From Eledone cirrhosa (Eukaryota), in the NCBI GenBank assembly GCA_964016885.1, contig OZ024743.1, forward strand, positions 66,092,001 through 66,156,000: 64,000 bases of DNA, written 5' to 3'. Numbering within the stretch: the stretch's first letter is position 1; each line of letters begins with the position of its first letter. Positions 1-55,160 of this stretch are shown here, piece after piece. Below the pieces are notes generated by a model. It saw nothing but the letters and a program-made list of their open reading frames with translations, had not been told where the DNA came from and ran no database searches. The translations under genes were made by a program, and so were the position numbers.

Positions 1-686
1 AACTTAGCGTGACGCGTAGACATACGCCACTAAAAATAGCAGCCGCGTCTACACGACTTTTGAAATAGCTCTATACGGCTCGGAAAAGCCTTTTTCCTAG
101 AGCTAATTTACTGTAATGAGAGTATTTTGAGTTTCTAACTCAATACAATCTTTTGATATATTCGGCTCCGTTAATTCGTAGAGCTATTTCAAATGTCGTG
201 TAGACCCGGCTGCTATTTTTAGTGGCGTAAGTCTACGCAACACGCTAAGTTCGGGAACCATGTGCGTTATATATACACACACTTTCCAGTTTGCTATTTG
301 ATTTAGAAGTAGAAGTGAGGAGTATAATAATTTCAACACCCACTGATGAGCCTCAATTTGGAATTTCTCTTCACAAATAATATTGCGAAACGGTTATATC
401 AAAGACCGTCTGGGTGATGGTAGTTACCACAATACTGGTTTGTATTTATTTTTCTTAATTTGTTCTTAAATTGAGTCCAGCAAATCCTATTGTCTGTAGT
501 TAGTATTTTTTCACCTTAGCGATTTTGGTCCATTACGATTTGAACACACACACATATATATATGTCTGTGTTCGTTTTTGCCTTTTTGTTCAGGCATATA
601 CGGCTCGGAAAAGCCTTTTTCCTAGAGCTAATTTACTGTAATGAGACTATTTTGATTTTCTGACTCAATACAAGCTTTTGATATAT
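1..686 (+). mobile_element. Non-coding hammerhead-bearing PLE-type/retrozyme-like unit (~525-nt monomer, 5' inverted arm; may extend left of window)
   Basis: 72-160 is directly repeated at 597-686 (period 525). 1-73 is the reverse complement of 179-251. Contains an HHR at 337-416 and ends in (TA)n. Confidence 0.75.
337..416 (+). ncRNA. Type I hammerhead ribozyme, canonical core
   Basis: Stem I CACCCA(337-342)/TGGGTG(411-416); CTGATGA 343-349; GAAA 387-390; stem III CGGT/ACCG; predicted cleavage after GTC at 410. Confidence 0.8.
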
Positions 687-760
687 ATATATATATATAT
701 ATATATATATATATATATATATATATATATATATATATATATATATATATATATATATAT

Positions 761-1328
761 ATGTATATGTATGTATATATATACATACTACTGTACGTCT
801 GTATACATATATGAATGTACGTATACATACATACATTTAAGTACCAGCCGTACTAAGAGTGAGAAATGAAATTTCGTTTCATTCTTTTCCATTTAGCGTT
901 TTCGGTGCGCCAGGCCGACTAACTCACTCGATATGCAAATTAGGCTGCTCAGCTGTTAATATGCATAAGGAAAGTATATACTTTCAGACGTACAACCATC
1001 TGACAGAAAGGTATACGATGCTGACGATAGTTAATAAGCTTGAAACTAGTACATTGTTCCTGTGTCAGTGTTGAACAAAAAGGTGACGATGGTTGCCTGA
1101 ACACTGTACGGCGTAATTCGGGCTGTTTGTTTACAAATAAACCGAGTATTATAATAAATGTCCGGTAAACCCATACGTACATATATATATATATGTGCAT
1201 GTATGTATATATATACATACTACTGTACGTCTGTATACATATATGTATGTACGTATACATACATATATTTAAGTAGCAGCCGTACTAAGAGTGAGAAATG
1301 AAATTTCGTTTCATTCTTTTCCATTTAT
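761..1328 (+). mobile_element. Non-coding hammerhead-bearing unit (~432-nt monomer, ~1.3 copies)
   Basis: ~130-bp direct repeat (ctgtacgtctgtatac...tttcattcttttccattta) starting at 791 and 1223. HHR at 1015-1057; (TA)n flanks. Confidence 0.7.
1015..1057 (+). ncRNA. Minimal type I hammerhead ribozyme (palindromic stem III, U10.1/U11.1)
   Basis: ACGATG-CTGACGA-T-AGTT aata AGCT-T-GAAA-CTAG-TA^CATTGT. 6-bp stem I; ACTAGT palindrome; cleavage after 1051. Confidence 0.8.
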
Positions 1329-2140
1329 ATATATATATATAAATATATATATAAATATAAATATGTGTGTGTGTCAGTATATTCATATATATATATATAT
1401 ATGTATATATTCGCGTGTGTATGTCTGTGTGTTTGTAAAAAAAAATATATATATAATGTAAATGATTGAACTGACAGAGTAACCTACATGCCGTCGAAAC
1501 ATCCATAATCTCACATTGGCAATATATTTTGTGTACATTACTAGGTGACTTTCTTTGTTTCTGTAACAATCTAAACTATAATAAAGTAAGGAGTGCGGGA
1601 CCGCGTCTAGAATATATTTAAAAAAAATAAATAATGAATGAATATTACATAATTTATCTACTAAATTTCGTTATTCTTGATTAAATATTTTTGCTTATTT
1701 TAAGATCCAATTCATTAAAATTCTCATATGTCAAAACTTCCGGTTAGCGACCGCTTAAATAAACATTCATATATTTCCGTCACTAATTTTCTATCGTCTT
1801 TTTTTAATGTATCATGATTACGTTACTGATTACATAAGACAGTGTAACGCAGTCTTCGTTCAATTTCTGTGTATATTGTCAATTACGATTTTATTTGATG
1901 TATCTTAACTACATGCATATATGCTTGCGTATAATATCAATGTACATTACACATGCTATCAATGCACATTACACATGCTAGTTTTATTTGATGGAAGCAA
2001 GGTTGTCAGCTTCGCACTCCATTCCTTCTCGCAACAAATGTGTTGTGTTTTTTACATCAGCACGACCAGTATGCAATTTCTAATAACAGTATCTGATTTT
2101 GGCAGACGACCAGCAAATTTGGAGAAGCGAAAAGTCGACT

Positions 2141-2301
2141 AAATTGACCCCAATGCGTGACTGGTACTTTATTTTATCGATCCCGTAAGGATGAAAGGCA
2201 AAACTAACGTCGGCGGGATTGAACTCAGATCGTAAAGGGCCGTGCTTCTATGCTGTGAAACAGGGTGTCCGACGATCTACCGATACTGCCAATCTGACGC
2301 C
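2141..2301 (-). mobile_element. tRNA-derived SINE (abundant family), diverged copy
   Basis: Matches the family at 27870-28051; A-box-like TGGCAGTATCGG on the minus strand. Confidence 0.75.
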
Positions 2302-2732
2302 ATCATATCACGTTTTCTGCCAATAATTTAATACACACACACACATATGTATATATATATATATATATGTATATATGTATATATGTATATGTATATATAT
2401 ATATATATATATATATATATATATATATATATATATATATATATATATATATATATATATATGTATATATATATATATATATATGTATATATATATATAT
2501 GTATATATATATATATTGTTATATTTGGGGAGGGTCATATTTGCGTAATATTGCCAGAATTAATAACAGAACACACTCACTGTTTGGTTGGTTTTTGCTT
2601 CTCGCTGTCTTTTATATATATATATCTGCGATCTAACTTACTCGGGCCTCAATGTTGCCATTGACTGACCGGCGGTCAAAAATAATACAGATACAATATA
2701 GACACAAACACATATATATAGTTTACATAATT

Positions 2733-2774
2733 TACATAAATCTTTCGTTGCACATCTGCAACATCGTCAGTGGT
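2733..2774 (-). ncRNA. Minimal hammerhead-like motif in PLE pLTR (weak stem I)
   Basis: Reverse complement: CTGACGA-T-GTTGCA gatg TGCAAC-GAAA-GATT-TA. Same motif as 53555-53596. Confidence 0.55.
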
Positions 2775-3043
2775 GTTATATTCATTGTTCCTCCTGTTGT
2801 GTTGTATGTCTACGCCATTTTTTTTTTTTTGTTCAGTCTGTCTATATATTTATTTATTTATTTGCTTGTTTGTTTATCTTATTTTATTTTGTCTTCTTTG
2901 CGCATGCGTTTGCGTGTGTGTATAGTGTTATGTGTGATGTGTGACTAGTGTGTATAGTGTTGTGTCTGCTGGGTGACTAGTGTGTGTTTATGTGCTTGTG
3001 TATGTATTTATTTATCTTATTTTATTTTATTTTATTTACTTAT

Positions 3044-3592
3044 TTATACTTCTCTTAGGTCAGTGTTGTTTGTTTGGGTGTTGTTGTTGTTCCACTCATT
3101 CTTTCTGTTTAGCTTTGGTCTTCTAATTTCTATTTCACTGGCCTCTCTGATTTGCCTATCTGCTGGGTCATTCCTATGTTTAGATATTATTCTAATTTCT
3201 ATGTTGTCTATGTTACCGTCATGTTGTTGTCTAGCATGTTCGTATAGTACTGACCCGTTTTTTCGTCCTTTTAGTTCCCCCCAGTGTTGGTCTATCCTTT
3301 CACCTATGCTACGAGCTGTCTCACCTATGTATGTTGTTGTCATGTTTCTGCAAGTACCCTCTGTACATCTTATGCTATAGACTACGTTTCTAGTTTTACA
3401 GTTTATCCGGGGGTTCACCTTACATATGATACATTTCCTATTGGTACAGTGGGTTTTCTTAAAAGGGTAGGTTTTGCTGATCAGGGATTTTATGGTGGTT
3501 CCTGGCTTTTCTACCACCTTTATTTTTAAGTGGGTCTTTCTCAGGGCCTTTCTACGCTGGTTAGCTAATTTCCCTCCAGGGGTGGACGCCAT
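3044..3592 (-). pseudogene. PLE GIY-YIG endonuclease C-terminal fragment
   Basis: 182-aa ORF with VVYSIRC..C..YIGETARSIGERIDQH, nearly identical to the C-terminus of ORF 51529-53322. Confidence 0.9.
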
Positions 3593-53554: not shown

Positions 53555-53596
53555 ACCACTGACGATGTTGCAGATGTGCAACGAAAGATTTATGAT
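53555..53596 (+). ncRNA. Minimal hammerhead-like motif in the 3' pLTR
   Basis: ACCA-CTGACGA-T-GTTGCA gatg TGCAAC-GAAA-GATT-TA^TGAT; aligns with 32939-32981; stem I imperfect. Confidence 0.58.
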
Positions 53597-53821
53597 AAAC
53601 TATATATGTGTGTTTGTGTCTATATTGTATCTGTATTATTTTTGACCGTCGGTCAGTCAATGGCAACATTGAGGACCGAGTAAGTTAGATTACCGATATA
53701 AAAGACACAGAAGCGAGAAGCGAAAACCAACCAAACAGTGAGTGTGTTCTGTTATTAATTCTGGCAATATTACACAAATATGACCCTCCCCAAGTATAAC
53801 TATATATATATATATATATAT

Positions 53822-53934
53822 ATAGCTCAGCCGTCGGGGTCCTACTCGTTCCTATTACCCACTCTACTACCCTAAGTATTGAGTACTTTGGTGTGTTATG
53901 GTCCACCTGGTTCCTTACCACATTTCCTTCGTTA
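53822..53934 (+). mobile_element. Family A 3' fragment
   Basis: gccgtcggggtcct...ttaccacatttccttcgtta. Confidence 0.7.
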
Positions 53935-54168
53935 TGTATATATATATATATATATATATATAGCAATATATATATATATAATAATAAAGTATGAATTCCT
54001 ACGTGTAAAAAATACATATAGGGAAGCAAGTATTATCCAACCGTATGTCAATGTGGTTCTATGGCGGGTTAATAAATTAACAAGCCAGAACATATAAAAT
54101 CAAGGTCTAGCAAATAGAGAAAAAGTTTTAAAATAAATTTTTAAAAATTCGCTGTACTTACTATATGT

Positions 54169-54250
54169 GCCTTTACCGCGGTTTCATGTTCCAGAATAAA
54201 CGGAAGATCCAAGCGGATTTATATTGAGAAGGGAGTAATCTTCAGAAGGT
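54169..54250 (-). ncRNA. Type I hammerhead (copy 1)
   Basis: Reverse complement: CCTT-CTGAAGA-T...T-GAAA-CCGCGG-TA^AAGGC. Confidence 0.7.
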
Positions 54251-54655
54251 TCTTCTCCCTCGGAGAATATAAAATTTCCGATTTCAAATCACAAACTGAC
54301 GCCATACAAAACCATTCCCAAATGAGAGCGGATGATGAAAGAAATAATTCTGTCTGGTGCCGTGTGCAAAGACAAAAGGCAGGGTGGACAGGTCAATGTC
54401 CTGCCACTAGAAATAGCAGCAGTCCAAACGGCCAAAATTTTATTTCTACCTTAGGGGGAGATTAATAATAATAAAGAATGAATTCCTACGTGTAAAAAAT
54501 ACATATAGGGAAGCAAGTATTATCCAACCGTATGTCAATGTGGTTCTATGGCGGGTTAATAAATTAACAAGCCAGAACATATAAAATCATGGTCTAGCAA
54601 ATAGAGAAAAAGTTTTAAAATAAATTTTAAAAAATTCGTTGTACTTATTATATGT

Positions 54656-54737
54656 GCCTTTACCGCGATTTCATGGTCAAGATTAAACGGAAAATCCAGG
54701 CGGATATTCATTGAGAAGGGAGGAATCTTCAGAAGGC
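54656..54737 (-). ncRNA. Type I hammerhead (copy 2, stems II/III decayed)
   Basis: Reverse complement: GCCTT-CTGAAGA-T...T-GAAA-TCGCGG-TA^AAGGC. Confidence 0.6.
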
Positions 54738-55160
54738 TCTTCTCCCTCGGAGGCACATATAGTAAGTACAGCGAATTTTTTGAAATTTATTTTAAAACTT
54801 TTTCTCTATTTGATAGACCTTGATTTTATATGTTCTGGCTTGTTAATTTATTAACCCGCCATAGAACCACATTGACATACGGTTGGATAATACTTGCTTC
54901 CCTATATGTATTTTTTTAGACGTAGGAATTCATACTTTATTATTATTAATCTCCCCCTAAGGTAGAGATAACATTTTGGCCGTTTGGATTGCTGCTATTT
55001 CTAGTGGCAGGACAATTACCTGTCCATCCTGCCTTTTGTCTTTGCACACGGCACCAGACAGAATTATTTCTTTCATCATCCGCTCTCATTTGGGAACGGT
55101 TTTGTATGGCGTCAGTTTGTGATTTGAACTCGGGAATTTTATATTCTCCGAGGGAGAAGA

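Follow-up and report, generated by a model that had tools for sequence, protein, structure and literature searches.

Within a 64,000-nucleotide (nt) stretch of the Eledone cirrhosa genome (assembly GCA_964016885.1, contig OZ024743.1, positions 66,092,001 to 66,156,000 of the forward strand; hereafter the window), four repeat units each carry a hammerhead ribozyme preceded by the same 14-nt word, GCTGYTATTTYTAG. The question raised by this locus is what that word is for. An earlier reading of the letters alone (the sequence-only reading) had offered two answers: an internal promoter, possibly driven by MEF2 in muscle or neurons, and an RNA signal recognised by the protein of a Penelope-like element (PLE). 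The second fits the evidence best. With a probability of roughly 0.55, the word belongs to a block that serves as the RNA recognition signal by which a Penelope-type reverse transcriptase (RT) begins copying internally, at the end of the element's tail.

The motif is real, lies beyond chance and is more structured than the sequence-only reading had seen. Six exact copies occur in the window, against 0.00 expected, and none of 100 shuffles reached this number; the five positions given earlier are all exact, and the sixth copy, at 30-43 on the minus strand, had been overlooked. A search that allowed two mismatches added four sites (2.2 expected by chance). In a profile combining the motif with the second box described below, the six copies score 37-44 bits and the next best site 13. 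The variant at 62519-62532, which the sequence-only reading had placed inside loop II of the PLE hammerhead, carries two mismatches and reaches 8.6 bits; this minus-strand look-alike, which stands beside a degenerate core (CTTCAAGAG, not CUGANGA), is assigned to the background, as are the look-alikes at 28291, 50478 and 50757, which form no part of the signal.

Judged by their sequence, the four units belong to the non-coding Penelope-like (retrozyme-type) elements and have type I hammerheads. Cores and stems of this type are readable in all four, and none attains the Rfam gathering score. No open reading frame (ORF) of at least 120 amino acids was found across the units, the one frame printed per unit contains stops, and tblastn with 120 PLE proteins returned two weak hits, both outside the block. 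For unit 2, stem I is formed by 4501-4509 with 4624-4632, the predicted cut falls after GUC at 4621-4623, and the hammerhead is absent from the plain minimum free energy (MFE) fold of 4500-4595. The units resemble the retrozymes without long terminal repeats (non-LTR retrozymes; PMC7229834, PMC4209133, 10.64898/2026.07.22.740005) in being non-coding, a few hundred nt long, AT-rich and partially tandem, with a type I hammerhead. Those retrozymes form long arrays, whereas the units here are dispersed partial tandems and inversions in (TA)n. Non-LTR retrozymes have been argued to owe their mobility to PLE proteins and to be non-autonomous PLE derivatives (10.64898/2026.07.22.740005). Each locus holds one complete hammerhead per strand, with a further partial copy in unit 4, as monomer-type insertions; two or more consecutive head-to-tail units each with a complete hammerhead, the 'active retrozyme' of Li et al., were not found at these loci. 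Comparison of the four units with the PLE ends in the window gave no match.

The reference point for the motif is provided by the insertions themselves. All four units are partial tandem and/or inverted insertions, flanked by (TA)n and with a one-sided tail, in a window of 35% GC that is rich in microsatellites. They share the PLE insertion anatomy described in PMC8557442, which comprises pseudo-LTRs, an adjoining inverted truncated copy, a one-sided tail and a microsatellite bias; insertion into (TA)n is recorded in the supplement of that paper for Octopus Naiad and Hydra PLEs. In each family one tail copy runs directly into (TA)n and another continues internally. Mapped on the internal copy, the last base before (TA)n is 155, 4337, 31476 and 54943 in units 1-4, respectively, and the internal copy goes on matching (TA)n for 6, 3, 3 and 3 further nt. 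Counted from this junction, the motif begins at 54, 46, 46 and 48 nt. The CUGANGA cores (343, 4510, 31692 and 55166) lie 134, 127, 170 and 175 nt past the motif on the ribozyme strand, distances that the sequence-only reading had given correctly and that are reproduced here for all four units. Its description of them as similar does not hold, as they range over 48 nt, whereas those to the junction between tail and (TA)n are tight (46, 46, 48, 54). Since the junction distance is tight (46-54 nt) and the core distance loose (127-175 nt), the motif is anchored to the tail and not to the ribozyme. The block to which it belongs measures about 60 nt, begins 3-8 nt past the tail end and spans, counted from the junction, about +4 to +63 in units 2 and 3, to +65 in unit 4 and to +71 in unit 1.

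A fixed junction distance would equally suit a cut-site ruler, in which the GIY-YIG endonuclease would recognise the block as DNA, be it a duplex or an extruded hairpin, and would be guided to new cuts beside the element's own tail, with the tandem and inverted insertions as the outcome. All four units are tandem or inverted, in keeping with this explanation, and PMC11167929 cites earlier work in which the endonuclease depended on the Penelope tail to recognise plasmid DNA. However, the free ends are located in (TA)n, which does not contain the block, so that cutting there cannot need it in the target, and the G-U pairs of the hairpin described below fall on the RNA-sense strand. A DNA signal for the endonuclease is thus considered distinctly unlikely.

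Extension of the motif by 4 nt reveals an 18-nt hairpin, GCUGYUA-UUUY-UAGYRRC, in every copy, the motif supplying its 5' arm and loop. Across the four families 27 of the 28 pairs are kept, and six of these are G-U when read on the ribozyme strand. With five copies taken together, 34 of 35 cells are paired, and this hairpin is the sole helix predicted in the RNAalifold consensus. The four bases 3' of the motif vary (TGGC, CAGC, TAAC, TGGC) but can still pair with GCTG at 15 of 16 positions, which corresponds to p about 8e-6 under independence, a figure that is overstated because the families are kin. Departures from a perfect palindrome number seven in all, namely six G-U pairs on the ribozyme strand and one C-A. 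Read on the ribozyme strand, the 18-mer folds with -3.0 to -6.7 kcal/mol; for the opposite strand the energy is -0.2 to -3.3 kcal/mol. Across families, 12 of the 14 motif positions are invariant; within both in-window copy pairs the 18-nt hairpin is identical, with too few changes in these copies for conservation within a family to be judged.

These features bear directly on the promoter explanation, according to which the block, as DNA, would be an imperfect palindrome bound by a dimeric factor, MEF2 or another, and would drive the transcript trimmed by the downstream hammerhead. The MEF2 consensus is CTA(A/T)4TAG. The central 10 nt of the motif match it strictly in units 1 and 3, whereas units 2 and 4 deviate by a single C within the A/T core, so that the match claimed by the sequence-only reading holds for half of the families; a relaxed MEF2 word occurs 26 times in the window. 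Unlike the MEF2 word, conservation and pairing reach 4 nt further on both sides, and the pairing GCTG lies outside that word. It is true that a palindromic DNA site would also resemble a stem, that the 5' arm is almost invariant and that two boxes with fixed spacing look like a bipartite promoter. Nevertheless, the spacing is tied to the tail end and not to the ribozyme, and the departures from symmetry are mostly G-U on one strand. Penelope of D. virilis has a promoter in its pseudo-LTR (pLTR) region (PMC2377424), but that promoter has been mapped next to the 5' intron, immediately downstream of the start site, while the splice-like sites of the present units follow the hammerhead, away from the block. 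A MEF2 promoter is therefore not supported on present evidence, the basis for a muscle or neuron promoter at this locus is removed, and promoter function in general is regarded as unlikely.

A role of the hairpin elsewhere in the RNA would place it as a U-rich 3'-end or termination signal, or as an aid to hammerhead folding, circularisation or export. The U4-5 loop on the transcribed strand and the hammerhead on the same strand are compatible with such a role. On the other hand, a C breaks the U run in two families, the distance to the hammerhead varies by 48 nt, and no Rfam family covers the block: at gathering level the window yields only a transfer RNA (tRNA)-like head of a short interspersed nuclear element (SINE), and at E up to 5 over units 1-3 nothing was found over the block. 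Roles of this kind appear highly improbable.

A second common box, NCUC...GUW-GAGN, ends 23, 23, 23 and 25 nt before the motif. A small hairpin can be formed by this box as well, closed by an outer G-C pair in units 1 and 2 and by U-A in units 3 and 4. Tested alone by leaving out one family at a time, this upstream box ranks the true position 31, 6, 1911 and 12 of 127,890, ranks that must be read with its selection after inspection of the alignment in mind. The small hairpin was scored by pattern and is out of register on the MAFFT alignment, where 30% is paired. The statement of the sequence-only reading that the units otherwise barely align is consequently too strong: in addition to this box, found 23-25 nt upstream, there is a wider kinship of unit 1 with unit 2 (tail, spacer) and of unit 3 with unit 4 (hammerhead). 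The word AACCATGTGCGTTA, rightly reported as common to two families (256-269 and 4443-4456), is restricted to units 1 and 2, has a partial duplicate in unit 2 near 4429 and belongs to their wider kinship.

Even when the motif is removed, the block aligns with z 4.2-5.5 for all three pairs among units 2, 3 and 4 and with z 3.0 for units 1 and 2, whereas tails and spacers among units 2, 3 and 4 give z -0.9 to 0.5. Of the six pairs, 1-2 is the only one that aligns in the tail and likewise in the spacer, whereas hammerheads align for 1-2, 1-3 and 3-4. From these pairwise alignments it follows that the families are kin, probably in two lineages (1/2 and 3/4), and that the block is kept above its flanks. 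Mere ancestry with no extra conservation, a possibility that the sequence-only reading had held against its own proposal, does not describe units 2, 3 and 4, in which the block aligns above tails and spacers. The related explanation that the block is a functionless relic, such as a remnant of 5' coding sequence from an ancestral PLE, draws on the kinship of the families and on the fact that the motif can be translated as L-L-F-L, its two variable bases being synonymous within leucine codons; one frame gives VE-(9)-LLFL in units 2-4 and LLFL in unit 1, and in the PLE PAc, considered below, the region after the tail is ORF (PMC11167929). Stops and a frame change within the block argue against it, as does the invariance of 12 of 14 motif positions next to spacer and tail that are at background across lineages. 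Moreover, neither VE-(9)-LLFL nor LLFL in the first 200 residues occurs in any of the 120 related PLE proteins, which are relatives of the neighbouring PLE and perhaps not of the true partner. A relic is thus very unlikely.

Recognition of the block as RNA is instead suggested by its position. In the anole Poseidon element PAc, the one PLE tested in vitro, reverse transcription begins internally at +111-118 and genomic tail ends coincide with these starts; RNA out to +172, about 55-60 nt 3' of the start, is needed and has been proposed to contain a protein-binding motif (PMC11167929). Because the block, counted from the tail end, occupies the same stretch of about 60 nt as the RNA required by PAc, it is a candidate PLE binding signal. 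In PAc and in the present units the hammerhead, the tail and then the required region or block follow in this order, and the targets are AT-rich. The two differ in that the required region of PAc is ORF and was defined by truncation, with no conserved motif described in the accessible text of PMC11167929, whereas the block here is non-coding and conserved over four families. Similarly, the accessible parts of the retrozyme literature name no conserved signal besides the hammerhead, whereas the present units have a second structured block at the tail end.

The observed anatomy, spacing and pairing potential are compatible with the following course of transcription, folding, binding and initiation. 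Read-through would yield a tandem (or circular) transcript with the block just 3' of the tail end, where the protein of an autonomous PLE would bind it and nick (TA)n. The nicked end would pair with the 3-6 nt UA stretch, and complementary DNA (cDNA) would begin about 46 nt upstream of the hairpin. With such a start at the tail end, insertions would end at the tail, and internal and inverted copies alone would contain the block. A non-coding family would then have to retain two parts for mobilisation, the block and the hammerhead, and this need may be the reason why both outlast tail and spacer sequence. Non-autonomous SINEs likewise keep 3' stem-loops of long interspersed nuclear elements (LINEs) for recognition by the partner RT. 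Those stem-loops lie inside the copied 3' end, whereas the hairpin here lies 3' of the presumed start and, unlike them, would need a tandem or circular template to be copied in that round.

A more specific version, which is put forward only tentatively, is that the two hairpins form a 'ruler' RNA domain that docks the PLE RT and sets the cDNA start ~46 nt upstream, on a UA template matching (TA)n. If this were true, the domain would be telomerase-RNA-like, with a short internal template and a separate RT-binding domain, and would be a naturally defined PLE recognition element in octopus-type non-coding Penelope parasites. As regards the way in which PLEs choose their RNA and their internal start, the RNA needed has so far been located by truncation in one in vitro study. 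That four diverged families keep one 60-nt block equally far from the tail points to a minimal signal and to the exact bases to mutate. Such a signal would explain what a retrozyme must keep besides its ribozyme to remain mobile, and would bear on the common ancestry of PLE RTs and telomerase.

Several observations weigh against an RNA recognition signal. No pair of the main hairpin is altered on both sides in the four families, and a column-shuffle control was not beaten (411/500 for percent paired, 500/500 for covariation). The near-invariance of the 5' arm would be expected of a protein-bound DNA word too, and the 6:1 G-U bias is small and non-independent. Whole-block MFE folds of 83-90 nt show the main hairpin in three of the four units and the small hairpin in two; the folding z of the whole block is -3.1, -1.6, -1.1 and -1.6 in units 1-4, and the opposite strand folds equally well or better in units 1-3 (z -2.9, -3.2, -1.6). 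One unit 4 copy disrupts a C-G pair of the small hairpin, the block of unit 1 aligns with those of units 3 and 4 with z of only 1.5 and 0.3, and, as two lineages are probable, the U-A/G-C change counts as one event. The start in PAc shows no homology to the cut DNA (PMC11167929), whereas 3-6 nt match the target here. Furthermore, no autonomous element with the block was found in the window, where the neighbouring PLE lacks it, and the motif was not found in the accessible Naiad, Chlamys and Hydra consensus files of PMC8557442, whose line breaks can hide matches. The sample comprises four families in one 64-kb window.

Outside the window, a metagenome scan with the two-box pattern gave no match, and the hairpin word gave 118 loci from 43 of the 64 parts scanned. 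Two of these loci have a box-like stretch and one a core-like stretch, none has both and none a (TA)n run; they are therefore taken as chance matches. A search of sequencing runs with unit 4 returned seven runs among the matches listed, four of them with part of the stretch; no RNA run is among these listed matches, which is no evidence either way. No description of the motif was found in the literature searched, while Repbase/Dfam and the O. vulgaris repeat library could contain these families; in the accessible part of PMC13282606 ribozymes are unmentioned. The coordinates of all features are collected in Table 1.

Table 1. Positions in the window of the motif copies, of the parts of the four units and of the neighbouring Penelope-like frame.
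Feature	Position	Strand	Remarks
GCTGYTATTTYTAG, exact copies	209-222, 4383-4396, 31522-31535, 54991-55004	+	
GCTGYTATTTYTAG, exact copies	30-43, 54407-54420	-	
Unit 1, inverted truncated copy: main hairpin	26..43	-	includes motif 30-43
Unit 1, internal tail copy	72..161	+	tail to 155, then 6 nt matching (TA)n
Unit 1, upstream box	165..184	+	predicted small hairpin GCUC...GUA-GAGC
Unit 1, main hairpin	209..226	+	7 bp, UUUU loop, 2 G-U, atop longer lower stem
Unit 1, type I hammerhead motif	337..416	+	core 343; weak Rfam match, 22 bits, below gathering
Unit 1, terminal tail copy	597..680	+	adjoins (TA)n
Unit 2, tail, inverted pair	4231..4340		terminal (-) at (TA)n; internal (+) to 4337, then TAT
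Unit 2, upstream box	4345..4360	+	predicted small hairpin
Unit 2, main hairpin	4383..4400	+	7 bp, UUUC loop, 1 G-U
Unit 2, type I hammerhead motif	4501..4632	+	core 4510; long stem III; read by hand
Unit 3, inverted truncated copy and internal tail	31075..31479		copy (-) into (TA)n; tail (+) to 31476, then TAT
Unit 3, upstream box	31483..31499	+	predicted small hairpin UCUC...GAGA
Unit 3, main hairpin	31522..31539	+	UUUU loop, 1 G-U, 1 C-A mismatch
Unit 3, type I hammerhead motif	31686..31771	+	core 31692; palindromic stem III
Unit 4, inverted copy	53978..54265	-	hammerhead (core 54245) to tail end at (TA)n
Unit 4, inverted copy of main hairpin	54403..54420	-	
Unit 4, upstream box	54949..54969	+	predicted small hairpin AUCUC...GAGAU, after tail end 54943 and TAT
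Unit 4, main hairpin	54991..55008	+	UUUC loop, 2 G-U
Unit 4, type I hammerhead motif	55161..55242	+	core 55166; palindromic stem III
Splice-like regions	405-540, 31760-31860, 31339-31400, 53650-53800	+	
Splice-like region	54100-54180	-	
Penelope-like ORF, near full-length	49658..53322	+	two frames; without the common block

Directly after the hammerheads stand the splice-donor-like words GUAAGU, GUAAAU and GUAGUU, followed in units 1, 3 and 4 by U-rich tracts ending in YAG; in units 3 and 4 the element ends that are shorter are found close to the acceptor-like site. By analogy with Penelope, these splice-like sites could possibly mark a retained 5' intron.

The neighbouring PLE, at 49517-53800 (+), contains an Asn-rich insert and a hammerhead at 53559; it also has an inverted 5' copy, and its 60-nt tail has two ends in (TA)n. 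Among named relatives of its RT protein, the best is from Octopus vulgaris (67% identity). Its internal copy continues with TAT after the tail end, as in the four units, and a long hairpin of different sequence lies ~45-85 nt past the tail end, inside the ORF (49760-49850 +, z -2.3); this may possibly be the same arrangement realised with another sequence. Fragments of the 3' part of the same or a related family are found at 2518-3598 (-) and 32797-33476. The 3' part of a further PLE, whose protein resembles by eye the Hydra clade, occupies 62433-64000 (-) and contains the degenerate hammerhead core mentioned above. Two nested fold-back PLE-like remnants are embedded in (TA)n, one formed by 13830-14331 with 16798-17258 and the other at 15050-15930; the outer pair carries CUGANGA cores at 13992 (-) and 17137 (+).

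At 28120-28560, a decayed repeat, to which a fragment at 27590-27616 is related, ends in the motif look-alike at 28291-28304, about 30 nt before the tRNA-derived SINE head (Rfam tRNA match at 28337-28400). Broken LINE or other non-LTR remnants are located at 23887-26726 (-), with an RT match at 24444-25643, and at 36428-37580 (-), 47051-47659 (+) and 55694-57358 (+), and another non-LTR 3' fragment contains a CUGANGA core at 36108 (-).

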